A DNA stretch of 63,515 bases from Thermoplasmatota archaeon (GCA_035541015.1 DATLFM010000035.1:1-63515); one strand, 5' to 3'; numbered from the stretch's first letter, positions 7,842 to 54,857 are shown. Translations and numbers: made by a program. The notes: generated by a model from the letters alone, not told the origin.

Positions 7842-7849
7842 TTTATATA
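7842..7849 (+). promoter_or_regulatory. TATA box (TTTATATA) heading the giant-protein operon
   Basis: Canonical archaeal TATA octamer in an AT-rich spacer. It starts 37 nt upstream of ATG 7879, so the transcript would be nearly leaderless. A second weaker TATTTAAG lies at 7804-7811. Confidence 0.6.
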
Positions 7850-7878
7850 CTTTCCATTGCCTGCGCCCTGTGCCTCGG

Positions 7879-35800: not shown

Positions 35801-38800
35801 TCGAGCCGGCCTGCGACCTCGTCGGCTGGATCCGGGCCAACCGCTTGCCGGACAACTCGCTTCCGCCCAACGCCACGCAGCAGAGTTTTGTCGTGCCCGG
35901 CTGCCTTGGGCCCGGACAGCGCACGACCGTGTTCCGGTCGCCCTTTGCCGACGACGTGGTGGACCGTCGCATCCCGGAGATCGAGAACCAGGACTACCAG
36001 ATCATCCTGCACGTGATCCCGCTTGAGGGCGACGAGCGGACGTACGACAACACGCACGTCCTGCGCCTGCACGCCGCCACCGTCCAGCATGTCGAGCCAA
36101 AGCTGCTGCCCGAGGACGTGGCTCCTCGGACGGTCCCCGCCGACGGCGCCTTTGCCGTGTCCACGCTGTTGTCGAACTGGGGCACCCAGCGAGAGCGCGT
36201 CCGGGCGGAGGCCACGCTCGTCCGCCTGGATCCCGGCCCGCAGGGATGGGACCACAACGGCACGCTTGGCTGGGGCAACCGCACGACGTACACGGGCGCA
36301 TCGGTCGTCGTGAACGGCACGCTTGTGCCCCTGGGCCTGGACGCCCGCCACCTCACGCTCGACCACCTCGAGGAGCGGTCGGTCGTCTGGAACGTGCAGA
36401 CCCGAGGCCTGCCGCCGGGCGTCTATTCGGTGAACGTGACGGCCTCGATCCTAAACGAGACCGGAGTTCCCAAGCGCAACATGACCTCGCGCAACGTGAG
36501 CGTGCTGCTGGGACACACGGGCCTGTACCTCCACGCCGACTTCGACTTCGGCAACCGGACGGCCGTCGGCGACAACCGCACCTTCGACAACTCAAGCTAC
36601 TGCAACCCGCTCCCCGACGCCACCGGGCGCCTCCGTTGCACGGGCAACTTCACGTCCGGCGCCGGACCGTTCTGGATGCGCGACAACGGCAACTGGACGT
36701 GGGTCGACAGCGCCCGCGTCCAACACATCACGACGAACAACGGGCCGCAGCCCTTCACGCGCGACGTCGAGTACCGCAGGCCCACGAACAGCCATCCTGA
36801 CCGGGACGGGGGCGCGCGCTTCCAGTGGGACCCCGACGCAGGCCCCGGCGGCGCCGGGGACGGCGCCTGGATGTGGATCCGGCCGGAGGAGCGGATTTCC
36901 TCGACGCGCGACACCGACGACGCGCTTCTGTCGCCTGTATTCTACCTCCGCGGAGCCGACTTCAACTCCACGTTCCTCCACCTGCAGCACACGTACTCGA
37001 TGCCGCCGGACGCCGCCGGCCTCGTGGAGCTGCAGCTTGCCCGGTGGGTGCCCATGCCCTTTGGCCCGCCGCCCGGCGGCTACTGGACCTTCCACAGCAT
37101 GGAGACCGACTGGATCCCACTTGCGCCCGTCTTCGGTGGCTCCCTGGGCTACGGCAAGGACAGCACGGCCACGCTCGTGCGCGACGCCTACGACGAGCGC
37201 GCCGCTGGCGGCGCCAGCGCCAACGGGTGCGGGATGGGAGCCGCGGGAGTCGACAACCCCGACACCGGCCACTCCTCCGACGCCTACGAGCTGTGGTGCC
37301 CCGACTCGGACTCGGCGCAGGGCGACGGAGGCTCGCTGGGGCTGCCGACGATGCGCGCCAACCGCATCCCCACGAACCCGTTGGACGGCAACCGCAGCTT
37401 CGGGCTGGGAGCGGCCACCGACGGCTGGGAGACCGTCGTCTTCAACCTCTCGAACAGCAGCGTCTCGAACTACCCACTCCTCGGGCACACGCAGCGCAAC
37501 GTCCTCCTCGGTTCGGCCGCGGCGGGCGACGAATGCCGCATCGCGGACGGCCCGGCCCAGGTGTACGCCGTCTGCGACGAGGCCCGCGCCAACAACGAGT
37601 TCGACTGGCGCCCGCCCGTGCCGGCGCGGCTGCGCTTCCGGGCCGGAAGCTTCGGCCCGGCCCAGGGCCACTTCGAGTGGGTGATCGACAAGATCTCCGT
37701 CTCCGGCTACGCTCCGAGGCTTTCGTTCCTCGACGTGCCCGGCGCCGCCCGCGTGGTCTGCGGCGTGGAGCGCGTGCCGTTTGCCAACGCCTCGCGCGAG
37801 TCCGGTTGCCCGCGTCCGGCCAACCTTACCACGTTGCATTGCGGCGTCTCCGCCGACCAGGAGGGCGACCCCTGCCCGCGGCCCATCGAGCGCGTGATCG
37901 ACTCGATCGCCGAAGGCGAGCGGCACGAGTTCGAGATCGTGGTCCGCAACCCGGGCGGTCTTCCGGACCTCGTGGACCTCGCGTTCGACTTCGTGGGCGT
38001 GGCGCCGCCCGAGTGGATCGAGGCGGGCACCGGCTTTGCCACGCCCGGGGGGGTCGTCGACCGGATGCAGGTCCTCCTCCCGCCGCGCTCGTCGCGCTCG
38101 ATCGTCGTCGTCGTGACGGCCGCCGTCGGGCTCCTCGAGCCCGAGTTCAAGTACGAGTTCGAGGCGGTCGTCCGGGCCGTCTCGCAGTTCGATCCCATGG
38201 CCCAGCACTCGCTGCGCATCCTGCTCGAGCACTCGACGGCGCTTCACCCGGACGTCGTCGTCGAGGACGTGCAGACGGGCACCGAGTCCTCCCTCTTGGG
38301 CGGCCCCACGCGCTCCGTGTACGCGGGCGTGCCGACCCTCGTCACGGTGCAGATCTCCAACCGCGGCACGGCCGAGGCGCGCGACGTGATGGTGCGCCTG
38401 CTGGCCCGCTCGCCCTCCGGCGAGGAGACGGTCGTGCTCGGCCCCACGCTTGCGCCCGTCACCCGCCTGGCGTTCCTCGACGCGGGCGGTCGCACGGTGT
38501 CGCTGCCCTTCACGTGGACCCCGCGCGAAACGGGTCCGCACACGATCGTCGTGGAGGCGTTCCTCGCCAACGCGGCGACCCGGGAGATGAGCACGCGCAA
38601 CAACGAGATCCGGTTCTCGATCGACGTCGTGAGCCTGCCGCTTCCCGACCTCGTCGTTTCGTCGCTCCAAGTGCTGGAGCGTGGCAACCAGCCGGTGTGC
38701 ATCCGCGCGCTCATGCCCGCCTGCGAGGGCCCCGAGGGTCCCGTCGAGGGAAGCGTGGTCGACGTCCTCGTCCGCGTGCAAAACGCGGGCCGAGCCCCCG

Positions 38801-40395: not shown

Positions 40396-43300
40396 ATGCG
40401 ACGCGGGGGAGGTCGCGGTCGGCGTGCCGCAGTGGCAGCGTTGCTCGCCCTGCTCCTACCCCAGCTTGCGCTTTCGCCCGCCGCGGCGGCGGGCGAGGAG
40501 GTCTTCGACCCCGGCGGCCTTGCGACGGCGAGATGGTGGGGCCCCGAGGACGACGCGGGCTGGCACTTCCGGGTCCCCGTGGCCGTCCACCCGCGCATCA
40601 ACCTCACGCACGAGGGCCTCGAGATGGCGCCGTACCTGCCGCGCCTCGTCAACCACCCGGTCGAGGCGGAGCTTGACCTCAGCAAGCTTCTCCTCACGGC
40701 GGGATGGCTCAACGACTCGATGGGCGGGCAGCCGTTCCTGCGCAGCTTCACGCTCGACCTCGACAGCTTCCGGGTCGTCGAGTACACGGGATTCTTCGGC
40801 CGCGATCACCACCCGATCGTGAACAACCCCCAGCGCGAGGGACCCGAGCACGTGCGGGAGGAGGTCCCCTACGTCCTCAACACGGCGCTCTTTGCCCAGC
40901 GCACCCCGCGCCCGTTCGACGCGGGCACGAACCCCATCGTCACGCTCACGTGGCTTGCCAAGGACGTGCACGCGCCGCGGTTCTTCTACGTGTACTTCGA
41001 CATCCTCGAGAACGGCAGGAAGCCTGCGCCCTCGTATGCCGGGGAGGAGATGGAGCGTCTGGACGCCCTATCGGGCGCCACGCGCGCAAACGTGTTCTAC
41101 GGGGAGACGTACAACGCGAACAACTTCGACCGGAACCGGGTCGTGACCGTCGTCGCGCTCGACGCCAACACGCGCGTCCGGTTCTACGAGTACAGCACGT
41201 CGCCCGCGCGTCCCCTCCTGCAGCCCAGCCGCGAAGTCGTGCTTGGGCGCGGCGAAGCGGCCTCCTACGAGGTCGGCGCGACGCGCGCCTCCGACGGCCG
41301 GTTCAAGGTGGTCGCCGACAAGCCCGTGGTCGCCTACGCGGCGGCCCGCGGCGCGGACTCGCGCGGCCGCCCCGTCGACGTGGGCACCTTCCATCCCAGC
41401 GAGGACGGCACGCTCGTCGGCCGCAGCTTCCTTCTGTACGCCACCTCGGCGCAGTTCATGATCGTGGCGCCCAACGCCGGCGAGGAGGCTCGCGGCACGC
41501 TTTACCACGTCCATCCGGGCGGCGCCGAGGAGGAGGTCGCCCGGTTCCGGTACGAGCCGCTCACGCCCGGCTCGACGTTCCGGACGCAGTTCCTCCGCGT
41601 GAACCTCGCAGGCCACGCCGGGGCCGTGCACGGCGTGCTGCGGTACGCCGCGGACGCCGGATCGGCCCCGGTGTTTCTCGTCTCCGTTGGTCCGGGCGTC
41701 TTCCCCGCGATCACGCCCGCCGGCGGCGTGGCAGGCACGTCTGTGTTCAGCGTGGCCAAGCGGGAGGGGACCTTCCGCCTCGTGTCGCCCGTGAACGAAG
41801 CGCGCGTGGAGGTCGGAAACCTCGATCTTGCCGGCGGCGTGCTGTGCGGAGACCAGCCGGTGAGCCCCGGCCTTGCGGCCACGCTGGGGGAGACCCTGGC
41901 CCGCGCATGGGACTCCTCGGTGGGCGGCTGCATCTACAGCCACGACACCATGGCGTTGCCGGTGCCCGTCTACTTCAAGACGGGCTCGCGCTCCCCGAGC
42001 CAGCGGATTCTCGCCACGTCGACGACCACGAAGATGGACGCGCGCGAGCAGTTCGTCTACCAGACCGTGGCCGGGAAGGCCCGGCAGGAGCACGTCCTGG
42101 TGGCCAAGCTCACGGAGCAGACGGGGGGGCACGGGCGCATCACCATCTTTGCCCACCACAACGAGACGCGCGTCCAACTGCGCCACGCCGACGAGAACGC
42201 CTTTTCGTCGGTCCTCCTGGACGCCGGAGGCTACCGGGTGTTCGAGCCGCTGCACGGGGGCTACACGGTCACGTCCAACAAGCCCGTGACCGTGCTGTGG
42301 CGCATGGACCGCGGCGGCGCCTTCGGCGGCGCCCTGGGAGGTCGCCTCGTGCCGGCCGAGGCGGAGATCGGCGCGGTCGAGTGGGGAAGCTACCTCGTCC
42401 GCCTCTCGGCCGCCAAGCGCTCGGCCTTCGTCGCCCCGGGCGGCGAGACGACCTTCGATCTGGGCGTGTCGGCCATCGGCCAGCGCACCTCCGGGCGTTT
42501 CCTGCCCGACCGCATCCACCTTGCGGTCGAAGGCGTGCCGGCGGGCTGGACGGCCGAGATCCTGCCCTCGGACGCGGTGATCGAGAACCGCGTGCAGAAC
42601 CCGCAGTCGGGCGTGCTTCGCGTGAAGGCGCCCCCGGGCAACGCGAGCGACGTGCCGCCGGCGCAGGTCATCGTGCGCGCCACCTCGTTGTCGAACCCCC
42701 GCATGTCCGACAGCATCCAGTTCATCGTCGCCGTCTCGATCCACTACGAGATCCTGCTCACGTTCGACACGCACGGGCTGCGGCCCGACCCCATCCGCCA
42801 GGCCGGCGTGCGGCCGGGCAACGCCACCACATACGACCTCGCGCTTGTCAACCTCGGCGACGTGGCCGACACGGCGCGCCTGGAGGTCGTGCGCAGCTCC
42901 GACTGGAACGCCACGTTGGCCGACGCCGACGGCAACCCCGTCTCCACCGTGGCGCTGCAGCCGCGCGAGAGCCGGATCCTGCGGCTTCGCGTGGAAGCGC
43001 CGACCGAGACGGTCACCCTCACGGACTTCACAAACGTCATCGCGACGAGCACCGGGAACGCCCTGGCCTTCTCCGCCGTCACCGCCATCACCACGATCAA
43101 TCCGGAGTTCCGAATCGCCTTCTTCCTCGAGAACGCGACCCAGTACGTCGATCCGGGATCGACCGTGGAGTTTCCGCTCGTCGCCGTGAACGCGGGCGAG
43201 ATCGAGGACCAGATCGACCTCCAGGTGCAGCACGTCCCGCTCGCCGGCCGCTACGCGAACTGGACGGTGAACCTGAGCGGCGAGTCCCTCTTTGCCGGAC

Positions 43301-44481
43301 GGCTCTCCGTCAAGCCCGGCCTTCCGGAGACGGTGAGCCTAAGCGTGGGCGTCCCCGAGGGGGCCCCCGCGCTCACCATCTTCCAGGTGACCGTGCACGG
43401 CATCTCCGTCAACGACCCCACGCAGCGCGCCACCGCGGAGGCTACGGTGTTCGTGAACCCGGTGCACGCCATCCGGGCCACCGCCCGCCAGACGCAGGTG
43501 AACGTGACAGCGGAGGACCGCCTGGCCCGCTTCGACCTCACCGTTCGCAACGCGGGCAACCTCGACGACGTGGCCCGCATGGTGGTCGTGGAAGCTCCCG
43601 ACGGGTGGAACGTCACGCTGCCAGAGCCCGTGCCGCTTGCGCCCGGCGAGCGGGAATCCCAGGCGCTTCGCGTGCAGCCCCGCGCCGACGCGCTCGCGGG
43701 CGTCTACAACGTCACCGTGGGATTCCTGGCCTCCAGCGGCCCGCCCTGGCCCCTGCCGCTTGCCGTGGGCATCGCCCCCATCCGCGAGGGAAGCGTCCAG
43801 GTCGACAGCCTTGCGCTTGAGGCCGGCACGCAACGCTCGGTCCCCGTGCGCATCGTCAACACCGGCAACGTTCCGCTCTTGCTGGCGCTCGAGACGAACG
43901 CGGTCGGTTGGCTGCAGGCGCGGCTGAACGCCTCGGACGCACGCGTGCCCGCCTTCGGCGAGGCGACGCTTGCCCTCACGCTGTCGCCCCTGGAAGGCCA
44001 GCAGGGTACGGAGGAGGTGCTCCTCCGCGGCGTCACGGAGGGCGGGGAGGCGGAGATCACCGGCACCGTGCGGGTGGCCGTGGCCCGCCTGGACCTGCGC
44101 GTGGGCAACCTTTCGATCTCGCGCATCCCAACCCCGGGCCAGGACGTCCTGCTGCGGGCGGTCGTGTCCAACCCAACCCCCCTTCTCGTCGAAGGCGTCG
44201 TCGCGCGGCTCATCGTGGACGGGGTCCCGCTGGCCAACGTGACGATCGACGTCCTGCCCGGCGGGCGCGAGGTCCCCGTTCAGTTCCGCTGGATCGCGCA
44301 AGCGGGCCTCCACGAGCTTGCGATCGCGGCGCAGGCGCAGGGATCGGCGCACGAACTGGCGAGCAACGTGGCGACCCTGCAGGTGGACGTTCGCGCGTCC
44401 TTGCCGGGACCCGAAGCGGCCGCCGCGGGGCTTGCGCTTGCGGCCGCGGTGGCGATCCGCGTGCGGAGGTCGCGTGGATGA
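40396..44481 (+). CDS. Secreted protein (1361 aa): N-terminal beta-rich domains, then an array of NEW3/COG1470-like and CARDB-like Ig modules, PGF-CTERM-like tail (LPGPE)
   Basis: Signal peptide MRRGGGRGRRAAVAALLALLLPQLALSPAAAA. Repeated units have the form ...v.N.G......l.v...P.GW.a.l (VEGVPAGWTAEILPS, VVRSSDWNATLAD, VVEAPDGWNVTLPE). It ends SLPGPEAAAAGLALAAAVAIRVRRSRG*. Confidence 0.8.
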   Translation: MRRGGGRGRRAAVAALLALLLPQLALSPAAAAGEEVFDPGGLATARWWGPEDDAGWHFRVPVAVHPRINLTHEGLEMAPYLPRLVNHPVEAELDLSKLLLTAGWLNDSMGGQPFLRSFTLDLDSFRVVEYTGFFGRDHHPIVNNPQREGPEHVREEVPYVLNTALFAQRTPRPFDAGTNPIVTLTWLAKDVHAPRFFYVYFDILENGRKPAPSYAGEEMERLDALSGATRANVFYGETYNANNFDRNRVVTVVALDANTRVRFYEYSTSPARPLLQPSREVVLGRGEAASYEVGATRASDGRFKVVADKPVVAYAAARGADSRGRPVDVGTFHPSEDGTLVGRSFLLYATSAQFMIVAPNAGEEARGTLYHVHPGGAEEEVARFRYEPLTPGSTFRTQFLRVNLAGHAGAVHGVLRYAADAGSAPVFLVSVGPGVFPAITPAGGVAGTSVFSVAKREGTFRLVSPVNEARVEVGNLDLAGGVLCGDQPVSPGLAATLGETLARAWDSSVGGCIYSHDTMALPVPVYFKTGSRSPSQRILATSTTTKMDAREQFVYQTVAGKARQEHVLVAKLTEQTGGHGRITIFAHHNETRVQLRHADENAFSSVLLDAGGYRVFEPLHGGYTVTSNKPVTVLWRMDRGGAFGGALGGRLVPAEAEIGAVEWGSYLVRLSAAKRSAFVAPGGETTFDLGVSAIGQRTSGRFLPDRIHLAVEGVPAGWTAEILPSDAVIENRVQNPQSGVLRVKAPPGNASDVPPAQVIVRATSLSNPRMSDSIQFIVAVSIHYEILLTFDTHGLRPDPIRQAGVRPGNATTYDLALVNLGDVADTARLEVVRSSDWNATLADADGNPVSTVALQPRESRILRLRVEAPTETVTLTDFTNVIATSTGNALAFSAVTAITTINPEFRIAFFLENATQYVDPGSTVEFPLVAVNAGEIEDQIDLQVQHVPLAGRYANWTVNLSGESLFAGRLSVKPGLPETVSLSVGVPEGAPALTIFQVTVHGISVNDPTQRATAEATVFVNPVHAIRATARQTQVNVTAEDRLARFDLTVRNAGNLDDVARMVVVEAPDGWNVTLPEPVPLAPGERESQALRVQPRADALAGVYNVTVGFLASSGPPWPLPLAVGIAPIREGSVQVDSLALEAGTQRSVPVRIVNTGNVPLLLALETNAVGWLQARLNASDARVPAFGEATLALTLSPLEGQQGTEEVLLRGVTEGGEAEITGTVRVAVARLDLRVGNLSISRIPTPGQDVLLRAVVSNPTPLLVEGVVARLIVDGVPLANVTIDVLPGGREVPVQFRWIAQAGLHELAIAAQAQGSAHELASNVATLQVDVRASLPGPEAAAAGLALAAAVAIRVRRSRG
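44465..44469 (+). promoter_or_regulatory. SD GGAGG for ATG 44478
   Basis: Lies inside CGG-AGG-TCG (R-R-S) of the upstream tail, 8 nt before the ATG. Confidence 0.55.
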
Positions 44482-47400
44482 GGCGGGCCAAGGGCTTGGC
44501 CCTTGCCCGCCATGCGAGGAGCCTCGCGCTTGCGCTGGCGCTCTCCCTCGTCCTCACGCTGGGGGCCCTCGGCCTTGCCGCGCTGTCGGCCATGGACGCG
44601 CGGCCGGTGGCCGGCCACGATCCGGGCGTGCGCGGCGAGACCGTGATCCCGCTCGAGGACACGATCGGCGACGGTCTGGCCGACGTGGACGAGATCTTCC
44701 GCTACGGAACGAATCCGCAGCGCATCGACACGGCCGGCGACGGCATCCCCGACGGCTGGAAGGTCGCCTGGCAGGGATGCGACGCCGCGGGCTTCTGCCG
44801 CCCCGATCCCCTCCGCGCCGACGCGGGCGACCGCCTGTCGGGACCCGAGGGCATGACAAGCCTCGAGAAGTACGAGTGGACGCGGCAAAACCTCGTCGAG
44901 CCCGCGGAGGCGGCCTGCCAGTGCAAGCTGCGCGGCGAGGCTCTCATGGACCTGTTCCGCCGCGGGCTTGATCCCTGGAAGCTCTCCACGGTCGACGACG
45001 GCATCCCGGACACCTACAAGATCCGGTACGGCCTGGATCCGCTGGACCCGGAGCTTGCGGAGAAGGACCCCGTCGGCAAGGGCATGACGATCCGCGAGCA
45101 GGCCCGCCACGGCCTGGACCCCTTCCGGCTCGACACCTCCAACAACGGGCTGTCGGACTACGAGGCCATCCACGTCTACCGCACCGACCCCACGAAGTTC
45201 TCGACCGTGAACGACGGCATTCCCGACGGGTGGAAGGTCCGCTACGGGCTCGACCCGCTCGATCCGCTCCTCGCGTGGGCGGACCCCTCCGGCACGGGCG
45301 CCACGATCCTCGAGGAGTATCGCTTCAACCTGCCCCAAGGCTGGACGGAGCGCGACGGCGTCTGGTGGAACGGCACGAATCCCATGCTCGCCGACACGGG
45401 CGGCGACGGCTTGGGGGACGATTTTGCCGCCCGCTTCGGCGTTCAGCCCCGCCAGCTCGCCTGCCCGCCGCCGGCGGCGCCGCAGGCCCGCTGCCCGAAC
45501 TCCCGCTACGATCCGACGCAGCACCACCCGGGCGCCGACCCGACGGGCACGGGCCTTACGCTGAAGATCGCCTACGAGCAGAAGCTCGGGCCGTTCCGGC
45601 AGAGCGTGGACCCCTTCCGATCCGACGCCGATGGCGACGAGATCCTCACGATCGAGGAGGTCCAAGGGTACGACATCGTGGTCAACGGGCGCAGCGCGCG
45701 CGTCTTCTCGAATCCCAACGTTTTCGACACGGCCGGCGACGGCCTTGGCGACAAGCGAAAGCGCGAGCTTGGCCTCTCGCCGATCACTTCGGACACGGAC
45801 GGCGACGGGCTGCCCGACCGCCTCGAGATCGACCTTGGGACCGACGCGCTCAAGGAGGATTCCGCCGGCGATGGCCTGCTCGACGGCGAGCGGTACGAGT
45901 ACCTTCGCGTGCGGCACGCGCAGGAGATCGCCCGCCTCGAGGGCGGCAACCGGACGTTCGTCGATCGCCTGCGCGCCTTGGACGACGCGTACGCAAGCCT
46001 CGACGACCGCGGCTTGCTGGACCTGCTGGGACCCAACGCCACGCTGCGGCCCTCCGCCACGGACCGCAAGAACATGCTCGAGCCCGACTGGGACGGCGAC
46101 GGGCTCGTGAACGGGCAGGAGGTCAAGCCCGACACGGGCCTCATCCCGATTCCCCCGACCACCTGCCCGGACGCGCAGGGGCGCACGGGTCCGCGGTCCC
46201 CCATCGATCCCATGCTCTCCGACACCTCGGGCGACGGCCTTCGCGACGGATGGAAGGTCGCCAACGCCTGCTGGGTCCCGTCGCTTGGAGGCTGGGACCT
46301 CGACGCCTCGAAGTACGACAGCGACGGAAGCGGCGTCTCCGACGGGGAGAAGAACTTCATGAACGACGGGATCCACTTCTACGATCCCAACCGCGGCGCG
46401 CTCCAGTACGTTCCCTTCCACAACCTGCGCAACCAGCAGTACGGAACGAACCCGCACCTTCTGGACTCCTCGGGCGATGGCCTCTCGGACGGGTACGAGG
46501 CGCTCTGGACGGAGCGCAAGCCCGAGGGCGCGCCCGACGGATGGCGGCTCGATCCCACGAAGGCGGACACGTTTGTGGGCGATCCCCTGTACTGCCCGAC
46601 CGCGGATCCCTGCCGCGACGGCGACCGCGACTTCCTCGAGGGGATCGAACCCGTGCGGATCCACAACCGGACCGCCACGACGGCCGGCAACGTCGTGTGC
46701 GACCTCGTGTCGCTCAACGTGACCCAACGCCACGCCGCGCGGGTGAGTCCGTTCCATCCGCAGACGCTTGCCGACGGCGTGCCCGACGCCTACAAGATCG
46801 CCTACGCCCTCGATCCGCTGGACGCCGACCTCGTGCGCGCGCGGCTCGACGGCGACGCGCACGGCCTCACGCTCCTGCAGAAGTGGCAGGTCTCGCAGCT
46901 GGGGCTGGGCCCGCCAGGCTGCGGCGCCCATCCCCTCGAATCGGACACCGACGGAGGGGGCATCCCCGACGCGCTCGAGCTCTCGCTTGGCTTGAACCCG
47001 CTGGACCCGGGGGACGACGATCCCACGGGCGATCCCACGAACTCGGGCCTCACCACGCGGGCCAAGATCGCGCTTGGGCTTGATCCCTTCACTCGGGACT
47101 CGTCGGGCAACGGCCTCATCGACGGCGGCTTTGGGCGGTTTGGGTTCACCGACGAGATGATCCTCGACATCGTCGACGGCCGCGACGTCGTGATCCCCAA
47201 TCCGAACACGCGCCGTTGCCCGCAGGCGGACCCGGTCCTTTGCCCGGCCGGCTCGTACAACGACCTTGACATCAAGGACCCCTCGCAGTGGGACAGCGCC
47301 GGCGACGGCCTCCCCGACGACTGGAAGATCGCGTACGGGCTCACGCCGGTGGGCGAGCGCTATGCGCATCTCCGCGCACCCGACGGGCTCACCTACCTTC

Positions 47401-50400
47401 AGAAGTACCGCTGGGGAATGCCGGCCGACTGGAACCTCCAGCCCGACGGCACGTTCGACTACCGCAAGGACGGCACGTGGTGGGGGGGCCTCCACCCGCA
47501 GGATGCGCGCACCGACGGTCGCACGTTTGATCCCGACCAGCGCGACCTCGACCACGACGGGCTCGACGACTTCAACGGGGAGGATCCGTTTCCCGTCGAC
47601 GACCAGGACAACGACGGGACCTGGGACACCACGGCGCCCTGGGACTCCGGCGGGCCCTGGTGCTCCAACGACGCCGTCGTGAGCCGCGGCGGGAACCCGA
47701 GCGACCTCTGGACGCGGGGCATCCGCTACGGAAACTGCCTGGACCGCTACCCCAAGCGGCTCTCCTTGCACACCGACGCCGACCGAAACGGCATCCCCGA
47801 CTGGCAGGACCGCGTCGCGATGTCGGTGACCGCCACGGCGCCCGAGGGCAACCTCGTGAGCAAGGCCTCGCCCTTTGTGGTCTCGGCCCGCGTGACCTGC
47901 GCGGCCACGAACGATCGCGCGCGCCGCGAATGCGCCGCCGTCGGGGCCCCCGTCGCGGGGGTCCCCGTGCTCGTGAGCCTCGACGATCGGGCCCTGGCCG
48001 CGGGCCCGGACGCCTACGCCCCCGACGGCCGGGGGCTCACGAACCTGCTTGGCGCGGGCTTCACCGACGCCGACGGCCGCGTGCAGATCGTCGCAAGCTT
48101 CGGGCGCAACTCGGTCGTCGTGCCCGCGGGTCTCACGCTTGCCGGGCGGACGGGCGAGCTCGCCTGGACGTACGCGCGGACGATCCCCGCCGGCCCGGGG
48201 CATCATCTCCTCGTCTGGGTCCCCAACACGACGGCCGCCCCCGGCGGCCCGCCCCCTCTTTCGGGCGCGACGGCGTCCTTTGCCGTGCAGGTCCATTCGA
48301 CCTCCCACTTCCTGCTGGACTCGAGTCCGACGGTGGAGAACGAGCGTCCGCTTGTCGTGGCCGCGCGCCTCGTCGATTCGACGCAGTCGCCGCTGGCCAA
48401 CCGCAACGTGACCCTTGCGTGGATGGGAACGACCGTCGTGCGCACGACCGACGGTGCGGGCGCCTTCAACGCCACGCTGCCCACGCCCGACCGCGAGCCC
48501 GGAGCGTACCCGCTTGTCCTGAGCTTCGCCTCGAGCGAGGCCCTCCTCGTCTCGAACCAGACGGCGCAGCCGATCCGCGTGCAGTATCCAACGCGATTCT
48601 CGGGCCTGCAGGTCGTTCCCGCGCTGCCCGCCACGGGCGAGCGGATCACCGCCTCGGCCGCGCTTCTGGACTACCGCGGCGAGCCGCTTCCCGGGCGGAC
48701 GGTCGTCCTGCTGCTCGCGGGGGCCGAGGTTGCAAACGCGACGACCGACGACAACGGGACCTTCGCGCTCTCCTACGTCCTGCCCCGCACCGTGGCCGCG
48801 GGCCTGCACAACCTCACGGTGCGCTTCGCCGGCGAGCCTGCCGCCGAGGACGCGCGCCTGTACCGCGAGGTCGCCGCGTACCCGGGCTTGAGCGTTCGCC
48901 GCGCCACCGCGATGTCCCTGCGGGACTTCCACGTGTTCCGCGGCGCCGGCGCGGCCGTCGTCAACGGGACGCTCCTCGACGAGAACGGCGAGCCGTTTGC
49001 GTGCAACGTCGCGATCGTCCTCGGGGGCCTCCATCGCGCCACGGCCGAATGCGACGCGCGCGGCCAGTTCCGCGCGACGATCCCGCACAGCGCGCTTGCG
49101 CGGCAGGTCGGCGCGGTGCCTCTGGTCGCCGAGTTCGTGGGGACGCCCTTCCACCGGGAGAGCCGCGCCGTCTCCACGATGTTCATCCAGGGGCTGCCGC
49201 ACGTCGCGCTCTCCGTGGGCGACGCGCAGCGGCAGCGGCCCTACTTCCTCAACGGGACGGTCCTCGACGACGCGGGCCAGCCGATCCGCGGGCAGGCCGT
49301 CGTGGCGACCTTCGCGGGAGCGCCCCTGCCCCCCGCGCCCACCGACGCCGACGGGCGGTTCTCGATCCGCTTCCTCGTCCCCCGCGAGACGCTCCTTGGC
49401 ACGGCCGTCGTGACCGCCCGGCTCTCGCCCACGCCCGCCTACGCCGACGGCGAGATCGCCACGGCAAGCGTGCGGGTGCTTGCCGCCACGGTGCTCACCT
49501 TGCCCGAGCGGGGATTGTTCCGCGGCGACGCCGTGCTCGCCGGACGGCTCCTCGACGACCTGGGCCGGCCCGTGACGGGCGCGCGCGTGAGCCTGTTCCT
49601 CGAGAACCGCACGCACGAGGTCGCCACCGCGCTCGACGGCGGGTTCTCCCTATCGGTGAACCTCCCCTCGTCGCGCGCCGCAGGACCGCTTTCCGCGCTC
49701 GCGCGGTTCGGGGGCTTTGGCGACTACGCTTCGACCCAGGTCGCCTCCACGTACTCCGTCCTCGGGCGCGCGAGCTTTGCCGACTTTGTCGTCGGCAACC
49801 TCGCCGCCGGCCGCGAGAACCCCGTGTCCGGGCGGCTTGCGCAGGAGAACGGGGCCCCCGTCCCCGCCGGCCAAGTGCGCATCCGCGTGGACGGCGCGGA
49901 CATGGTCGCCCTGCCCGTCGCGGCTTCGGGGACCTTCGCTGGAGCGCTTGCCCTGCCCGCGTCCTTCCCCGCCGGATCGCACCTCCTGGAGGCCACCTAC
50001 GAGGGCGCGTTCATGACGGAGGCGCGCCTTGCCCGCAGCGTGCGAGTGCTCGTGCCCGTGGAGCTCTCCGCCGTGGTCGAATCCGAGTCGCTTGCGCCCG
50101 GGCAGGCGTTCCGCACGCAGATCCTCCTGCGCGAGGCGGCCTCCGGGGCGCCCGTCCAGGGCCGCGTCGGCGTCGGCTTGGCCTATCGCAACGCGACGGT
50201 GAACCTCACGGTCTTCACGGACGCCCAAGGGCGCGCCTCGTTCTCGACCGTGTTCCAGGAGGGTCTCACGCTCACGATGCGCTACGGCGGCGACGATGCG
50301 CGCGCGCCCGAGACCACCGTGGTCGCCCTGCAGCGCACCCACGCGCTCGTTCCGGGGGGGCTCACGGGCCTCGTCGCGCTCCTGGGCGCGCTTGCAGCCG

Positions 50401-50807
50401 TCCTGCTTGGCGTGGCCTACCTCGTCGCCCGTCGCGAGCGCGCGCGCGTCGAGGAGGCCCGCGCCATCGTGGAGTGGCTCGAGGGCCGCCTGCGGGCCGG
50501 CGACGAGGCCGCCGCGGTCGTCATCGCCGCCCACGCGCGGCTCGTCGAGCACTTCGCCCGCCACGGCGTGCTGGCCAAGGAGGCCGCCACGGCGCGCGAG
50601 GTCGCGCAGGCCGCCACGGAGAGCCTGGCCATCCATCCCGACCGCATGAGCGGCTTCACGGAGCTCTTCGAGCGCGCGCGGTACTCGGGCCGGCCCATCG
50701 AGGACCCGGACAAGGCGCGCGCCTTGCGGCTTCTGCGCGGCATCCTCGACGATCTCGACTTCGCGCTTGGCCGGCGGCTTGGCACCTCCGCGCGGGGGAC
50801 GCCATGA
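44478..50807 (+). CDS. Giant bitopic protein (2109 aa): signal peptide, ~22 thrombospondin-type-3-like Ca-binding repeats, ~8 CarboxypepD_reg-like beta-sandwiches, one TM helix, C-terminal DUF4129-like domain
   Basis: ATG 44478 overlaps the upstream TGA (ATGA); the ORF-track start 43908 lies inside the previous gene. TSP3-like units (DTAGDGIPDGWK, TVDDGIPDTYKIRYGLDPLDP, DTDGDGLPDRLE and others) span about 44650-47830. Units of the form G..V.v.l.g......TDa.G.f....lP span about 47830-50290. The TM helix LTGLVALLGALAAVLLGVAYLVA lies at about 50361-50432. The DUF4129-like end contains FTELFERARYSGRPIEDPD. Confidence 0.8.
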   Translation: MRRAKGLALARHARSLALALALSLVLTLGALGLAALSAMDARPVAGHDPGVRGETVIPLEDTIGDGLADVDEIFRYGTNPQRIDTAGDGIPDGWKVAWQGCDAAGFCRPDPLRADAGDRLSGPEGMTSLEKYEWTRQNLVEPAEAACQCKLRGEALMDLFRRGLDPWKLSTVDDGIPDTYKIRYGLDPLDPELAEKDPVGKGMTIREQARHGLDPFRLDTSNNGLSDYEAIHVYRTDPTKFSTVNDGIPDGWKVRYGLDPLDPLLAWADPSGTGATILEEYRFNLPQGWTERDGVWWNGTNPMLADTGGDGLGDDFAARFGVQPRQLACPPPAAPQARCPNSRYDPTQHHPGADPTGTGLTLKIAYEQKLGPFRQSVDPFRSDADGDEILTIEEVQGYDIVVNGRSARVFSNPNVFDTAGDGLGDKRKRELGLSPITSDTDGDGLPDRLEIDLGTDALKEDSAGDGLLDGERYEYLRVRHAQEIARLEGGNRTFVDRLRALDDAYASLDDRGLLDLLGPNATLRPSATDRKNMLEPDWDGDGLVNGQEVKPDTGLIPIPPTTCPDAQGRTGPRSPIDPMLSDTSGDGLRDGWKVANACWVPSLGGWDLDASKYDSDGSGVSDGEKNFMNDGIHFYDPNRGALQYVPFHNLRNQQYGTNPHLLDSSGDGLSDGYEALWTERKPEGAPDGWRLDPTKADTFVGDPLYCPTADPCRDGDRDFLEGIEPVRIHNRTATTAGNVVCDLVSLNVTQRHAARVSPFHPQTLADGVPDAYKIAYALDPLDADLVRARLDGDAHGLTLLQKWQVSQLGLGPPGCGAHPLESDTDGGGIPDALELSLGLNPLDPGDDDPTGDPTNSGLTTRAKIALGLDPFTRDSSGNGLIDGGFGRFGFTDEMILDIVDGRDVVIPNPNTRRCPQADPVLCPAGSYNDLDIKDPSQWDSAGDGLPDDWKIAYGLTPVGERYAHLRAPDGLTYLQKYRWGMPADWNLQPDGTFDYRKDGTWWGGLHPQDARTDGRTFDPDQRDLDHDGLDDFNGEDPFPVDDQDNDGTWDTTAPWDSGGPWCSNDAVVSRGGNPSDLWTRGIRYGNCLDRYPKRLSLHTDADRNGIPDWQDRVAMSVTATAPEGNLVSKASPFVVSARVTCAATNDRARRECAAVGAPVAGVPVLVSLDDRALAAGPDAYAPDGRGLTNLLGAGFTDADGRVQIVASFGRNSVVVPAGLTLAGRTGELAWTYARTIPAGPGHHLLVWVPNTTAAPGGPPPLSGATASFAVQVHSTSHFLLDSSPTVENERPLVVAARLVDSTQSPLANRNVTLAWMGTTVVRTTDGAGAFNATLPTPDREPGAYPLVLSFASSEALLVSNQTAQPIRVQYPTRFSGLQVVPALPATGERITASAALLDYRGEPLPGRTVVLLLAGAEVANATTDDNGTFALSYVLPRTVAAGLHNLTVRFAGEPAAEDARLYREVAAYPGLSVRRATAMSLRDFHVFRGAGAAVVNGTLLDENGEPFACNVAIVLGGLHRATAECDARGQFRATIPHSALARQVGAVPLVAEFVGTPFHRESRAVSTMFIQGLPHVALSVGDAQRQRPYFLNGTVLDDAGQPIRGQAVVATFAGAPLPPAPTDADGRFSIRFLVPRETLLGTAVVTARLSPTPAYADGEIATASVRVLAATVLTLPERGLFRGDAVLAGRLLDDLGRPVTGARVSLFLENRTHEVATALDGGFSLSVNLPSSRAAGPLSALARFGGFGDYASTQVASTYSVLGRASFADFVVGNLAAGRENPVSGRLAQENGAPVPAGQVRIRVDGADMVALPVAASGTFAGALALPASFPAGSHLLEATYEGAFMTEARLARSVRVLVPVELSAVVESESLAPGQAFRTQILLREAASGAPVQGRVGVGLAYRNATVNLTVFTDAQGRASFSTVFQEGLTLTMRYGGDDARAPETTVVALQRTHALVPGGLTGLVALLGALAAVLLGVAYLVARRERARVEEARAIVEWLEGRLRAGDEAAAVVIAAHARLVEHFARHGVLAKEAATAREVAQAATESLAIHPDRMSGFTELFERARYSGRPIEDPDKARALRLLRGILDDLDFALGRRLGTSARGTP

Positions 50808-52036
50808 AGCGCCCCCGCTTCGCCCGGGCGCCCGGCGGAGGCCGCTTTCCACGCGTCCCCTGGGCGGCGCTTGCCGTCGCCGTGGCGCTTGCCGCCGTCG
50901 TCTCCACGCTTGCCCTCTCGCTTGTGCCCACCTCCGGTCGCACGCCCTACGGCGACGGCTGGGACGACCTCTCGGAATTCCGCTCGGTCGTCCAGGGCGA
51001 GCAGTACGCCTTCGGCACGGTGTACGCTTCCCCGCTTCTCCTGAAGGACGTGCCCGACCCGTCGCGGACGCTCTACGTCGTCGCCGGCGCCGAGCGTTCC
51101 TACTCGGAGGAGGAGGCCCTGGCCGTGGTCGACTTCTTCCTGCGCGGCGGACGCCTGCTCGTCCTGGAGGACACGGGCAGCGCAAACCAGGTCTCGCTTC
51201 GCCTGGGCGTGCAGTTCGACGGCGTGCGCCTCTGGGACTCCGCCTTCGACGGCACGCGCGACACGGCGTACGTTCGCGTCCAGATCCGGCTCGAGAAGGG
51301 CGCGCACGACATCCTCACGAACCTTCCCACGAGCCTTCGCGTGCTCGAGCGCGCGCCCGCGGGCGTTCGGCTCGACACGATCGGGGAGAGCACGCGCCAC
51401 AGCTACATCGAGCAGGACGGGGCGGAGGGGATCACCGAGGGCGACCTTCCGGGGCCCTTTGCCGTGGCCGTCGTCCTCGAGCACGAGGCCTCCGGCGGGC
51501 GCGCGCTGTTCCTTGGCGACTCCCACGTGATCGCCAACGCCCTGCTGCTCGAGTCGAGCAACCGGCGGTTTGTGGCCGGCGTCCTCTCGGAGCTCCTTCC
51601 AAGCGGCGGAACCGTCCTCCTCGACGCCTCGCGCCTCTCGCACGGCGGGGCTGGGCTTCGCGAGCTTGTCGCAAGCGCGGTCGCTTCCGTGCGCTGGCCC
51701 GTCCTTGGGCTTGTGCCCGTGGGCGCCGCGCTTGTGGCCCTGGCCGCCTTCGCCGGCCTGCGACGGACGCAGGCCGCGCGGGACGCGCCCTTGTTCGACC
51801 ACCGATTCGCGCCCGACGCGCCGCGCAACCCGCCGGAGAGCCCTTCGGCCTTCCGTGACCGCCTCGCCCGGGCGGCCGCGGCCAAGCTCGGCTTGCCCCG
51901 GCTCCCCGACGATCCCGAGACGCTGCGCGCGGCCGTGCCCGATCCTGCGCTCGCGCGCGCGCTTGCGGCGCCCGAGGCGCCGGCGCGGGAGACCTGGCCG
52001 GACCTCGTCGATCGGCTGCGGAGGCTGCGCGGATGA
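50804..52036 (+). CDS. DUF4350-like membrane protein (410 aa)
   Basis: ATG 50804 overlaps the upstream TGA (ATGA). The architecture is an N-terminal TM (VPWAALAVAVALAAVVSTLALSLV), a ~280-aa extracytoplasmic domain, a second TM (WPVLGLVPVGAALVALAAFAGL) and a Pro/Ala-rich tail. This layout, together with its position next to DUF58 and MoxR, matches DUF4350. The family call is by architecture and context only. Confidence 0.6.
   Translation: MKRPRFARAPGGGRFPRVPWAALAVAVALAAVVSTLALSLVPTSGRTPYGDGWDDLSEFRSVVQGEQYAFGTVYASPLLLKDVPDPSRTLYVVAGAERSYSEEEALAVVDFFLRGGRLLVLEDTGSANQVSLRLGVQFDGVRLWDSAFDGTRDTAYVRVQIRLEKGAHDILTNLPTSLRVLERAPAGVRLDTIGESTRHSYIEQDGAEGITEGDLPGPFAVAVVLEHEASGGRALFLGDSHVIANALLLESSNRRFVAGVLSELLPSGGTVLLDASRLSHGGAGLRELVASAVASVRWPVLGLVPVGAALVALAAFAGLRRTQAARDAPLFDHRFAPDAPRNPPESPSAFRDRLARAAAAKLGLPRLPDDPETLRAAVPDPALARALAAPEAPARETWPDLVDRLRRLRG
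52020..52024 (+). promoter_or_regulatory. SD GGAGG for ATG 52033
   Basis: Lies inside CGG-AGG-CTG (R-R-L) of the upstream gene, 8 nt before the ATG. Confidence 0.5.
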
Positions 52037-53262
52037 TCACCGCGAAGGGACGCGCGTACCTCGCCGGGGGCGTCCTTGCGCTTCTGGCCGGCGTCGTGGC
52101 CGGCTCGGCCGCGCTTGCCGCCGCGGGCGTCCTTTTCCTCTCCGCGCTTCTCGTGGCCGGCCTGCTGCGGCGCGACCTCTCGATCTCCGTGCGACGCTCC
52201 GTCCAACCCCAGCGCCTGCGCGAGGGCGAATGGGTCGACGTGGACCTCGCGGTCGCCAACTCCGGCACGACCGCCGGCTTCCTCGAGGTGGCCGAGACGC
52301 TCTCCGAGCGGCTCGAGCTCTCCGGCAAGGCGCGCGAGATGCTCGCGCTTCGGCCCCGCGAGACGGCGGCGCTGCGCTACCGTCTGCGCGCGCACGTCAA
52401 GGGCGTGTACTCGGTGGGGCCGCTTGCCTACCGTGTCGAGGACGTCTTTGGCCTTTTCGCCGAGGACCTCCAACACCCGGAGGAGGCGTACTTCACGGCC
52501 ATCCCCGGCTCCGATGACGCGGAGGTCGAGGCCAAGAGCCGCATCCCGAAGGGATACCTTGGCGAGCACATCGTGCGGTCGCCCGGCCAGGGCATGGAGT
52601 TCTTCGGCCTTCGCGAGTACGTCCGCAGCGATCCCCTCAAGGAGGTCAACTGGAAGGCCTCCGCCCGCGCGGGCGAGCTCATCGTGAACCAGCGCGAGCG
52701 CGAGAGCATCACCGACGTGGCCGTCTTCTACGACTGCCGGGCCGCCTCCGGTCGCGGCACGGCCACCGTGAACGGCAACGTGCTTGGGGCGCGCGCCGTC
52801 GCCTCGATGCTCGAGATCCTGCTCGCCCGGCGCGACCGCATGAAGTTCGTCTCCTACGGCCCCCGCGTGGACGTCGTCCAGCCGGACACCGGCGACCGCA
52901 TGCGGCACAAGGTCCTCAACCTCCTCTCCGCGCTCGAGCCCGCGGGCGACACGCGCCTCCTCCAGGCGGTCGAGGCCGTGCTTCCCACGCTCTCGCGGCA
53001 GACCCCCGTCATCGTGGTCTCCAACCTCGAGGAGGACGCAAGCGTCGTGGAGGCCGTCTCGCGGCTTCGCGCGCGCGAGCTCAACGTCCTTGTCCTCTCG
53101 CCGCGCGCGCACTTCCCCACCGCGGACGCAAGCGTGGTCGAGCTTGCCGCCGCCGAGCGCGCGGCCGTCGTGGCGGCGCTCCGGGCCGCCGGCGCGCGCG
53201 TGCTCGACTGGGACCCGCAGGCGAGCTTCTCGATCGCCATGGCCAAGGGGGCGCTCCTGTGA
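52033..53262 (+). CDS. DUF58 family protein (409 aa)
   Basis: ATG 52033 overlaps the upstream TGA (ATGA). Two N-terminal TM helices are present. The DUF58 signature is GEHIVRSPGQGMEFFGLREYVRSDPLKEVNWKASARAGELIVNQRE. Confidence 0.8.
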   Translation: MITAKGRAYLAGGVLALLAGVVAGSAALAAAGVLFLSALLVAGLLRRDLSISVRRSVQPQRLREGEWVDVDLAVANSGTTAGFLEVAETLSERLELSGKAREMLALRPRETAALRYRLRAHVKGVYSVGPLAYRVEDVFGLFAEDLQHPEEAYFTAIPGSDDAEVEAKSRIPKGYLGEHIVRSPGQGMEFFGLREYVRSDPLKEVNWKASARAGELIVNQRERESITDVAVFYDCRAASGRGTATVNGNVLGARAVASMLEILLARRDRMKFVSYGPRVDVVQPDTGDRMRHKVLNLLSALEPAGDTRLLQAVEAVLPTLSRQTPVIVVSNLEEDASVVEAVSRLRARELNVLVLSPRAHFPTADASVVELAAAERAAVVAALRAAGARVLDWDPQASFSIAMAKGALL

Positions 53263-53771
53263 CCGTTCTCGCGTGGGGGGCGCTTCTTGCCGTGGCCGCG
53301 CTTGCGGTCCTCGACTCGCGCGTGGGCCCCCTTGCGCCCGGCGCCGCGGCGGGGGCGGCCCTTCTCCTGCACGCGCTCTCCGCCTCGCGCGCAAGCCTTC
53401 GCCTGCCGGCCATCGTGGCCGCCGCCGCCACGGGCGTCTTCCTCCTGCCGCAGGTCTCGCTGGCGGGCCTGGCGTGGGCCGCGTCGCTCTTCCTCTACGT
53501 CGAGTTCTCGACCTCCGGCGCGCGCCTGGCGCGCTGGGGCGAGGCCATCGTCGCGCGCTACCGGCGCGCGCTCGTAGGCCCCCTTGCGATGGCGTTTGCG
53601 CTTGCCCTTGCCGCCGTGCTTTTCCATCGCGCCCTCGCCTTCCTGCTGCCCCCGGCGCTTGGCGAAAGCCTCGAGCTTGCAAGCTCCTTTGGCATCGCGG
53701 CCGGGGCCATTCTCGTCCTTGGCGTGGCCTTGATCGCGGCCCGCTGGCGGGAACGGCTCCTTGCGGCCTAA
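53259..53771 (+). CDS. Small polytopic membrane protein (170 aa, about 5 TM)
   Basis: GTG 53259 overlaps the upstream TGA (GTGA). The sequence is almost entirely hydrophobic, Ala/Leu-rich helices. No family recognised. Confidence 0.6.
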   Translation: MTVLAWGALLAVAALAVLDSRVGPLAPGAAAGAALLLHALSASRASLRLPAIVAAAATGVFLLPQVSLAGLAWAASLFLYVEFSTSGARLARWGEAIVARYRRALVGPLAMAFALALAAVLFHRALAFLLPPALGESLELASSFGIAAGAILVLGVALIAARWRERLLAA

Positions 53772-53852: not shown

Positions 53853-54857
53853 ATGGAGACCGACTTCAAGGTCTTGAAGGCCGCCCAGAAGGGCACCCGC
53901 TCGATCGCCAACGACGTCCAATGGGTGAGCGCCACCTGCAAGCGGCTCATCGAAGAGGTCGCCAAGGTCATCGTCGGCAAGCCGCACGTCCTCGAGCTTG
54001 TCACGGTCGACGTGCTCACGGCCGGCAACATCCTTTTCGAGGACTTCCCCGGCCTTGCAAAGTCGCTCATGGCGAGCACCTTCTCGCGCGCCTCGGGCTC
54101 CGACTTCAAGCGCATCCAGTTCACGCCGGACCTTCTGCCCGCCGACATCACGGGCATCTACATGTACAACCAACGCACGGGCGAGTTCGAGTTCCGGCCC
54201 GGCCCGGTCTTCACGAACTTCCTGCTCGCGGACGAGATCAACCGCGCGCCCCCCAAGACCCAATCGGCCCTTCTCGAGACCATGCAGGAGCGCCAGGTGA
54301 CGGTCGAAGGCAACACGCACGCGCTTGCCAAGCCCTACATCGTGCTTGCCACCCAGAACCCCGTCGAGCAGGAGGGAACCTACCCGCTCCCGGAGGCGCA
54401 GATGGACCGCTTCCTGATGAAGATGAGCGTGGGGTACCCGTCGCGCAAGGAGGAGGTCGAGATCCTCCGCCGACGCATGGTGCGCAAGAAGGACGACGTC
54501 GACGTGAAAGCCGTCACGACGCCCGAGGAGATCGTGAAGATGCAGAAGATCGTCGAGGAGATCCACACCGACGACGGCATCATGGAGTACATCGGCGAGA
54601 TCGTCTCGCGCACGCGCGAGGACCCCCGCATGGAGGTCGGCTCGTCGCCCCGCGGTTCGCTTGCCCTGTTCAAGGCGTCTCGCAGCTACGCCGCGGTGCA
54701 GGGCCGCGACTACGTCGTGCCCGACGACGTGAAGCGCATCCTCATGCCCAGCATGGCCCACCGCATGATCCTCAAGCCCGAGCCCAAGCTCAAGGGCGTG
54801 AAGACCGAGGACGTGCTGAAGAAGATCATCGACGAAGTGCCCGTGCCCAAGACGTGA
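53853..54857 (+). CDS. moxR: MoxR-family AAA+ ATPase (334 aa)
   Basis: P-loop region ILFEDFPGLAKS. Walker B FLLADEINRAPPKTQSALLETMQERQVTVEG. Also LATQNPVEQEGTYPLPEAQMDRF and the C-terminal SPRGSLALFKASRSYAAVQGRDYVVPDDVK typical of MoxR. Confidence 0.9.
   Translation: METDFKVLKAAQKGTRSIANDVQWVSATCKRLIEEVAKVIVGKPHVLELVTVDVLTAGNILFEDFPGLAKSLMASTFSRASGSDFKRIQFTPDLLPADITGIYMYNQRTGEFEFRPGPVFTNFLLADEINRAPPKTQSALLETMQERQVTVEGNTHALAKPYIVLATQNPVEQEGTYPLPEAQMDRFLMKMSVGYPSRKEEVEILRRRMVRKKDDVDVKAVTTPEEIVKMQKIVEEIHTDDGIMEYIGEIVSRTREDPRMEVGSSPRGSLALFKASRSYAAVQGRDYVVPDDVKRILMPSMAHRMILKPEPKLKGVKTEDVLKKIIDEVPVPKT

Follow-up and report, generated by a model that had tools for sequence, protein, structure and literature searches.

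MoxR/DUF58 modules are among the most widespread bacterial and archaeal gene sets without known function, and the locus described here raises the question of what such a module does beside genes for giant surface proteins. The locus lies in a 63,515-nucleotide (nt) stretch of DNA from a Thermoplasmatota archaeon (GCA_035541015.1, DATLFM010000035.1, positions 1-63515), the whole of which was analysed and is referred to below as the window; in the Thermoplasmatota the module is joined to an operon of giant surface proteins, one of which forms, in certain lineages, a single polypeptide with the DUF4129 protein. Our subject is the gene at 44478-50807, whose 2,109-amino-acid (aa) product combines a predicted ectodomain of about 2,000 aa, one transmembrane (TM) helix and a C-terminal DUF4129 domain. 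An initial annotation, made from the sequence alone, had described this protein as a DUF4129 anchor bearing TSP3 repeats and CarboxypepD_reg sandwiches instead of a transglutaminase core, and had proposed it as a transducer between the cell surface and the ATPase. The reading that we favour, tentatively and as a serious possibility that stops a little short of being probable, is that the protein is a membrane-spanning, non-enzymatic, TgpA-like anchor or docking subunit of the module; it draws on the architecture, the predicted topology, the conservation of the family, synteny and the fusion of a neighbouring gene.

The gene forms one open reading frame (ORF) on the plus strand, with its stop at 50807 and an ATG at 44478 that shares an ATGA with the stop codon of the 1,361-aa gene upstream. 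Its product is divided as follows, the evidence for each part (including a position-specific scoring matrix, PSSM, and AlphaFold2, AF2, models) being given in brackets.

44478..50807, plus strand: TSP3-like/immunoglobulin (Ig)-like/TM/DUF4129 gene (ORF, translation, full-length orthologs with the same Pfam set)
44478..44600, plus strand: N-terminal basic and hydrophobic segment, aa 1-41 (Kyte-Doolittle segment at aa 13-41)
44649..47813, plus strand: acidic TSP3-like putative calcium-loop region, aa ~58-1112 (PSSM loops, invariant Asp ladders, AF2 model)
47820..50333, plus strand: about eight Ig-like beta-sandwich domains, aa ~1115-1952 (Pfam, T-D-x-x-G-x-F repeat)
50355..50429, plus strand: single TM helix, aa ~1960-1984 (hydropathy scan, AF2, Lys+Arg enrichment)
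50430..50804, plus strand: predicted cytoplasmic tail, a five-helix bundle, aa 1985-2109, 125 aa (DUF4129 match, AF2)

The order of domains given in the initial annotation (loops, sandwiches, TM helix, DUF4129) is thereby borne out, with coordinates agreeing to within a few codons; its single TM helix, for example, was placed at 50361-50432 and falls at nt ~50355-50429 in our hydropathy scan. A Kyte-Doolittle scan identifies exactly two hydrophobic segments in the whole protein, at aa 13-41 and aa ~1960-1984, and the first of these may serve either as a signal peptide or, if left uncleaved, as a signal anchor. The predicted ectodomain between them holds ten pairs of Cys (20 residues) and 17 N-X-S/T sequons, both of which are compatible with an extracellular head and stalk. 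Long ORFs in alternative frames are abundant across the window and are typical artefacts at 70% G+C; an antisense ORF of 1,778 aa (44280-49616, minus strand), for which homologs favour the plus frame, and an in-frame TTG at 43908 were both discarded as artefacts of this kind.

The identity of the C-terminus is clear at the level of the Pfam profile: DUF4129 (PF13559) matches aa 2020-2087 (nt 50535-50738) at 39.4 bits against a cut-off of 24.8 (E 6.2e-10), over profile positions 3-69 of 69, which upholds its earlier assignment as DUF4129-like. The helix that precedes it is followed directly by RRERAR, and the number of Lys and Arg in the 15 residues flanking the helix averages 4.09 after it and 0.83 before it, being higher after the helix in 47 of 47 proteins of the family, an asymmetry from which the tail is predicted to be cytoplasmic. 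The DUF4129 tail would thus share the cytoplasmic side with MoxR and the body of DUF58. In the AF2 model of the tail (alignment of 21 orthologs, predicted local distance difference test score, pLDDT, 91.6) the TM helix extends by ~22 residues into the cytoplasm and is followed by four more helices. Within this bundle T2038 and Y2069 do not vary, and conservation reaches 83% or more at R2040, E2041, F2064, E2065 and R2068; these residues form a T-x-R-E motif at the start of helix 3 and an F-E-x-A-R-Y motif at the end of helix 4, both of which, by the order of helices in the model, probably lie at the membrane-proximal end of the bundle. The 125-aa folded domain follows the helix where a sorting signal of the archaeosortase type (PGF/PEF-CTERM kin) might stand, and no such signal is present in this protein. 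A HEPN fold was considered for the tail and rejected, the best Foldseek match (2hsb, E 0.028, TMq 0.47) being not significant and the Rx4-6H motif not conserved; the resemblance is a weak lead on the ancestry of the DUF4129 fold only, and the other PDB matches are generic helical bundles.

A homolog search covering 5.8 billion proteins places the protein in a large conserved family, so that its presentation as a singular fusion is not borne out. Dozens of full-length relatives of ~2,000-2,300 aa align at 25-29% identity over 96-100% of their length with the same Pfam set; such orthologs are common in Thermoplasmatota metagenome-assembled genomes (MAGs), where the name given in databases, if any, is "DUF4129 domain-containing protein". 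At least 46 of them are laid out alike, an ectodomain of ~2,000 aa being preceded by a hydrophobic N-terminal segment and followed by a single TM helix, and in 45 of 46 the tail measures 112-127 aa. The family is undescribed in the searchable literature, although present in public databases; that literature yielded nothing specific on giant TSP3 proteins in Thermoplasmatota or Poseidoniales, and scarcely mentions DUF4129.

The tail itself is distributed far more widely than this family. An exhaustive hidden Markov model (HMM) search with a profile of the tail lacking the TM helix retrieved 10,011 cluster representatives (E<=0.001) among 1.84 billion, superseding word-indexed searches whose tail alignment either included the TM helix (3 matches) or lacked it (1 match) and whose candidate lists were probably swamped by low-complexity words. 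Among the best 150 of the 10,011, the match is C-terminal in nearly all, in proteins of ~100 to 2,650 aa with varied heads. Of 36 tail relatives sampled, 35 carry a DUF4129 match, 15-17 Ig-like arrays, four Transglut_core, three TSP3_bac and one a subtilase domain (Peptidase_S8). Judged from these domain matches, the DUF4129 tail is a portable C-terminal module found on many kinds of ectodomain, an enzyme head being the exception.

The head that goes with the tail in the present protein is a long acidic region of ~1,050 aa (aa ~58-1112), 13.7% Asp with a net charge of -82. Loops of the type D-x-D-x-D-G-x-x-D-x-x-E recur there beyond chance: with a PSSM derived from the loops, 16 sites are detected where 200 shuffles of the sequence lead one to expect 0.03, and about five further degenerate Asp loops are visible. 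The count of about 22 loops in the initial annotation is therefore a fair one, although its strict motif matches only once; the YGLDPLDP sequence said to follow the loops stands in relaxed form, G[LT][DNS]P occurring nine times and the exact GLDPLDP twice. TSP3_bac scores 99-190 bits in relatives, and its accession, PF18884, is among the precomputed matches of most orthologs. In an alignment of 47 orthologs no column of the loops' Asp ladders varies, indicating that the head is a positionally conserved domain and not a drifting array of repeats. In an AF2 model of aa 40-1130 (mean pLDDT 75.5; 337 residues reach at least 90) coil predominates, interrupted by a short helix roughly every 22 aa, as would be expected of a "wire" of calcium loops. 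A Foldseek search of the PDB with this model returned no significant neighbour and no enzyme fold, the best result being the Bap B domain, matched locally over 44 columns (E 2.3), and a PDB sequence search with the whole 2,109-aa protein likewise returned nothing significant. Partial NCBIfam matches within the repeats are to CglD (NF033765, 71.8 bits against a cut-off of 400) and to MtsD. A Trp-rich motif, W..E.DG.WW.G.NP, is present twice in the region, at 45336-45383 and 47430-47498 (aa ~287-302 and ~985-1007); across the 47 orthologs the second copy keeps Y977, P982, W985, W1001 and G1004 without exception, and W1002 at 96%.

Between head and membrane the eight or so sandwiches that had been noted earlier are confirmed both by Pfam and by the spacing of their signature. 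CarboxypepD_reg matches three stretches (78.3 bits, 5.5e-22, cut-off 32.3) and Big_3_5 two (59.4 bits, 5.3e-16, cut-off 35.5), with Big_1 and MG4 also matching within the stalk; the T-D-x-x-G-x-F signature gives seven regular-expression matches and one degenerate copy (aa ~1814), spaced by ~100 aa over aa 1115-1952.

The absence of a transglutaminase core, and of its triad, is likewise upheld. Transglut_core gives no Pfam match in the protein at E<=0.01, and TgpA_N none, the N-terminus having one hydrophobic segment and not being multi-pass; a G.C..F motif is found in none of the 46 orthologs scanned, and across 47 orthologs neither Cys nor His reaches 80% conservation in any column. A diverged core was sought by hhalign, in which the transglutaminase region of two relatives, P0066 and P0068, aligned to the family alignment with a probability of 0.2%. 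On the evidence of Pfam, conservation in the 47 orthologs and hhalign, a cryptic transglutaminase was rejected and is close to refuted. The two relatives (1,701 aa) show that a protein with such a core in place is a real sister architecture: they consist of TSP3_bac (169-190 bits), a TgpA_N fragment, a Transglut_core (74 bits) that separates the TSP3 region from the Ig array, the array itself, a TM helix and DUF4129, and their gene is followed by those for DUF4350, MoxR, DUF58 and a 196-aa membrane protein (P0066 at L083 5407-10512). The statement that the ectodomain stands "instead of" a transglutaminase core is apt to this extent; it misleads in that a transglutaminase head is the minority among tail relatives (four of 36) and an enzyme-free Ig array is commoner. 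In eight transglutaminase-like cores carried on such tails, including those of P0066, P0068, P0138, P0213, P0184, P0177 and P0217, the nucleophile position is occupied by T, S, H, C, S, Y, C and C, with H-x-W and Asp mostly kept, so that about half of these cores appear catalytically dead. Since the nucleophile is often not Cys, catalysis has often already been lost, and a head of this sort resembles a binding module; complete loss of the core, as in the 2,109-aa protein, would be one further step after the loss of catalysis. The transglutaminase head of TgpA-like proteins is dispensable.

Synteny links the tail to a module immediately downstream, in which the following genes were identified.

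50804..52036, plus strand: DUF4350 (GldG-like), TM segments at either end, cytoplasmic tail of ~90 aa (Pfam 5.2e-10, hydropathy)
52033..53262, plus strand: DUF58 (von Willebrand factor A, vWA-like), with an N-terminal TM hairpin (Pfam 6.2e-14, hydropathy)
53259..53771, plus strand: 170-aa membrane protein with about four hydrophobic segments (hydropathy scan)
53853..54857, plus strand: MoxR-family AAA+ ATPase (AAA_3 210 bits, AAA_lid_2 82 bits)

The 170-aa ORF, for which neither Pfam nor NCBIfam gave a match, is separated from the MoxR gene by a gap of 81 bp; a membrane ORF of 168-242 aa follows DUF58 in orthologous loci as well. Searches of PDB sequences with the DUF58 profile and with DUF4350 gave nothing significant. 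We read eight gene contexts (the window, L001, L002, L083, L084, L085, L086 and L087), in seven of which the DUF4129 gene is followed directly by DUF4350, in some cases MoxR, DUF58 and a small membrane protein; the order DUF4129-DUF4350-DUF58 is kept, at 25-30% identity, in proteins that range from 240 to 3,274 aa and differ widely in their heads. The seven contexts other than the window are arranged as follows.

L001: giant of ~4,000 aa, protein of ~1,365 aa, DUF4129 giant, DUF4350, MoxR, DUF58, 227-aa protein
L002 and L084: as L001, without an adjacent MoxR
L083 (the locus of P0066): DUF4350, MoxR, DUF58, 196-aa membrane protein, MoxR lying between DUF4350 and DUF58 as in L001
L085: module on the opposite strand, ~7 kb from the DUF4129 gene
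L086: 240-aa DUF4129 protein, then DUF4350 and DUF58
L087: P0063 fusion (10001-19825), the separate gene of ~1,360 aa being gone from its usual slot

Four contexts, the window, L001, L083 and L085, have MoxR inside the module. The earlier claim that the protein links the ectodomain to the MoxR-module side of the membrane is sustained insofar as the tail is predicted to be cytoplasmic, by the positive-inside pattern in 47 of 47 proteins, and is syntenic with the module in the eight contexts. In the MAG to which L002 belongs, MoxR is encoded on another contig (L005, region 3244-6388), where its gene immediately follows that of a homolog of the window's 3,901-aa giant. The MoxR of the window is 65-75% identical to MoxR proteins of Thermoplasmatota MAGs. 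Homologs with ~60% identity to it are common in Marine Group II (L012-L082), in 10-kb flanks without detectable DUF58, DUF4350 or DUF4129 tail, which argues that the MoxR clade of the window serves more than one context; a set of 80 MoxR-anchored loci, mostly from Poseidoniales, in which tblastn, jackhmmer and the tail HMM detected no DUF58, DUF4350 or DUF4129 neighbours, is uninformative on the module.

The same run of genes extends upstream of the DUF4129 giant, where a series of secreted proteins is encoded.

162..40392, plus strand: seven further secreted proteins of 1132, 482, 822, 1246, 1244, 3901 and 4517 aa (Pfam, termini, overlaps)
40396..44481, plus strand: 1,361-aa NPCBM_assoc/CARDB surface protein (Pfam; same slot in L001, L002 and L084)

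Most proteins of this chain are rich in Ig-like, CARDB or NPCBM_assoc domains by Pfam, and the 482-aa ORF (3728-5176), which has an N-terminus resembling a signal peptide, has no Pfam or NCBIfam match. A candidate partner for the DUF4129 giant is found here: in P0063 and P0050 (3,274 aa) a homolog of the 1,361-aa protein is fused N-terminally to the TSP3/Ig/DUF4129 protein, the homology being supported by hhalign at a probability of 99.8% (E 6e-29, 651 columns). A Rosetta-stone fusion of this kind speaks for a joint extracellular function of the two proteins, and the 1,361-aa neighbour is a likely extracellular partner of the giant by this comparison of sequences. ATGA overlaps occur at six junctions (11535, 15155, 26848, 44478, 50804 and 52033) and a GTGA overlap at 53259, several of them being preceded by a GAGG-type motif ~8 nt upstream (GAGGTG in the case of 15155 and 26848); these start/stop overlaps indicate translational coupling over ~46 kb (7798-53771).

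Some features of the surrounding sequence may be recorded beside these. The C-termini of six upstream giants consist of LPGF(D/E), LPAFE, LPGPE or LPAME, then ~17 hydrophobic residues and then RRR or RRK (3470-3557, 7700-7783, 15070-15155, 26760-26848, 40300-40389 and 44390-44478). These tripartite tails look like sorting signals of the archaeosortase type, and NCBIfam CTERM models gave no match to them at the cut-off, the best being Heimdall-CTERM at 16 bits against 24; only the DUF4129 giant in the chain has a real cytoplasmic domain. G+C content is 0.65 at 54000-58000 (MoxR, SerB with two ACT domains and HAD, and the following genes) and 0.70-0.74 over the giant genes. In keeping with an archaeal source, genes for ribosomal protein S24e, an Rpb7-like subunit, DUF359 and UPF0146 are present elsewhere in the window.

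Taken with these observations, the proposed role can be stated more fully. Outside the cell, in a type-I-like layout, the acidic head of ~1,050 aa, in which we infer that calcium is bound, would be carried on the stalk of eight Ig-like domains, and head and stalk together would hold an extracellular complex with the co-encoded giants, first among them the 1,361-aa neighbour. On the other side of the membrane the DUF4129 bundle would provide a cytoplasmic handle for the membrane-tethered DUF58 adaptor and, via DUF58, for the MoxR AAA+ ring, and ATP-driven remodelling by MoxR would assemble, mature or maintain the surface complex; we infer both this contact and the direction of its action. A model of tail docking to DUF58 and MoxR, with a surface complex held by the head, bears on the function of the module and on the building of surface coats in uncultured planktonic and sediment archaea. 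A more far-reaching form of it, which we regard as rather doubtful, is an integrin-like two-way coupler, in which the calcium-loaded head would engage surface proteins or substrates, DUF58 and MoxR would grip the tail, ATP hydrolysis would be mechanically coupled to load or ligand, and DUF4129 would serve every MoxR/DUF58 module, bacterial or archaeal, as the cytoplasmic docking tail on heads as different as transglutaminase, protease and adhesin.

Several findings weigh against a docking role of this kind. MoxR was not found within the 10 kb read downstream in L002, L084, L086 and L087. At the MIDAS (metal ion-dependent adhesion site) of DUF58 (aa ~234-238) six orthologs have D-x-R-x-x-(S/T) and not D-x-S-x-S, and with a site so degenerate the classic metal-dependent capture of a ligand is unlikely. 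The 2,109-aa protein itself scores 20.6 bits for Pfam TSP3_bac, under the cut-off of 25; calcium binding is suggested by the resemblance of its motifs and by the precedents of thrombospondin/COMP and CglD. Foldseek and sequence-profile searches of the PDB with the tail found no characterised relative, and the N-terminal segment may be an uncleaved anchor, in which case the geometry would be altered.

A docking subunit must also be set against the view that the protein is the client of the module, a giant calcium-dependent adhesin or coat protein for which the module provides dedicated chaperoning, insertion or quality control, the tail being a handle for biogenesis with no relay afterwards. 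We judge this unlikely, if still worth serious attention: MoxR ATPases are generally described as maturation chaperones (PMC8430577), the protein resembles the TSP3-repeat adhesins CglD and MtsD, and the module genes follow DUF4129 genes whatever the head, even where the DUF4129 protein has 240 aa and is nearly devoid of an ectodomain. That same small protein, however, would hardly need a dedicated export chaperone, and the fusion of the neighbour and the conserved chain of giants indicate a multi-protein assembly and not a single client. The outside-in transducer proposed in the initial annotation, in which calcium, ligand or load on the ectodomain would regulate the MoxR ATPase through the TM helix and DUF4129, agrees with the single-pass topology, with the rigid helix that AF2 runs from the membrane into the bundle, with the conserved polar motifs at the probable membrane-proximal end of that bundle and with the syntenic ATPase. 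It nevertheless strikes us as improbable: the protein has no known signalling or output domain, MoxR is often not adjacent, single-pass signalling normally requires oligomerisation, of which there is no sign here, and the heads are too varied for a shared sensed signal to be likely.

The gene order is not constant in every respect, with MoxR absent or moved in several loci, the module of L085 on the opposite strand ~7 kb away and close Poseidoniales homologs of MoxR lacking such neighbours; each of these facts would suit an ordinary surface protein that merely shares a neighbourhood of envelope genes with the module. We attach a low probability to that explanation, given that DUF4129, DUF4350 and DUF58 keep their order across such divergent heads, that 4-bp start/stop overlaps couple the genes and that in the bacterial counterpart, TgpA, the corresponding gene is co-transcribed with MoxR and DUF58. 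Finally, relatives associated with the same module carry Transglut_core, and one carries Peptidase_S8, which might suggest that the TSP3 loops conceal a diverged core of transglutaminase- or protease-like type. The chance of this is slight in the extreme: Pfam, hhalign, the lack of conserved Cys or His and the Foldseek search all speak against an enzyme, and even where cores are present the nucleophile position is not Cys in five of eight. We retain the anchor or docking subunit as our working view and compare it with systems already described.

Two of these share parts of the architecture. CglD of Myxococcus xanthus, which calcium-dependent gliding requires, contains a COMP-like calcium-binding domain (bioRxiv 10.1101/2023.10.19.562135); the likeness lies in DxDxDG loops in a coil-like surface domain, extends to the repeats only and is reflected in the partial NCBIfam score given above. 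CglD differs in being an outer-membrane lipoprotein with a vWA/beta-integrin-like domain and without a TM helix or DUF4129 tail, and Pfam detects no vWA domain in the 2,109-aa protein. The PFNA cluster of Bifidobacterium (pkb2, fn3, aaa-atp and duf58 together with tgm; PMC8430577) offers a looser likeness, a large FN3-rich secreted protein being encoded with MoxR, DUF58 and a membrane transglutaminase; there the surface and membrane proteins are separate and a kinase is present, whereas here one polypeptide serves and there is neither transglutaminase nor kinase.

Closer in gene content is the archaeal secretion or membrane-remodelling complex predicted around arCOG01314 (DUF4350) by Makarova, Galperin and Koonin in 2015, of which a MoxR ATPase, a vWA protein, Ig-like/S-layer proteins and small membrane proteins are further parts (PMC5898192); the neighbourhood occurs in Thermococcales. 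All five component types are present at 162-54857, the physical complex itself being a prediction; DUF4129, a giant TSP3/Ig protein and a chain of 1,000-4,500-aa proteins are not named in the part of the description available (PMC5898192). The vWA protein appears there as probably secreted, whereas the TM hairpin of DUF58 in the window and its pairing with MoxR suggest a cytoplasmic body.

Close relatives in architecture are P0066 and P0068, which have in common with the protein of the window the tail, the Ig stalk, the TSP3 head and the downstream DUF4350, MoxR, DUF58 and small membrane protein, and which differ in keeping a transglutaminase-like core (with Thr or Ser as the nucleophile) and in lacking the upstream giants. 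TgpA (PA2873) of Pseudomonas aeruginosa, with a periplasmic head, a TM segment and DUF4129 and co-transcribed with MoxR and DUF58 (PMC3507681), provides the bacterial parallel: in both proteins an ectodomain, a TM helix and a C-terminal DUF4129 domain are encoded with MoxR and DUF58. The archaeal protein lacks the transglutaminase core, the catalytic triad and the multi-pass TgpA_N (DUF3488) and bears a TSP3-like head with eight Ig-like domains in their stead, and its module adds DUF4350 and a small membrane protein and stands at the end of a ~54-kb chain of surface genes.

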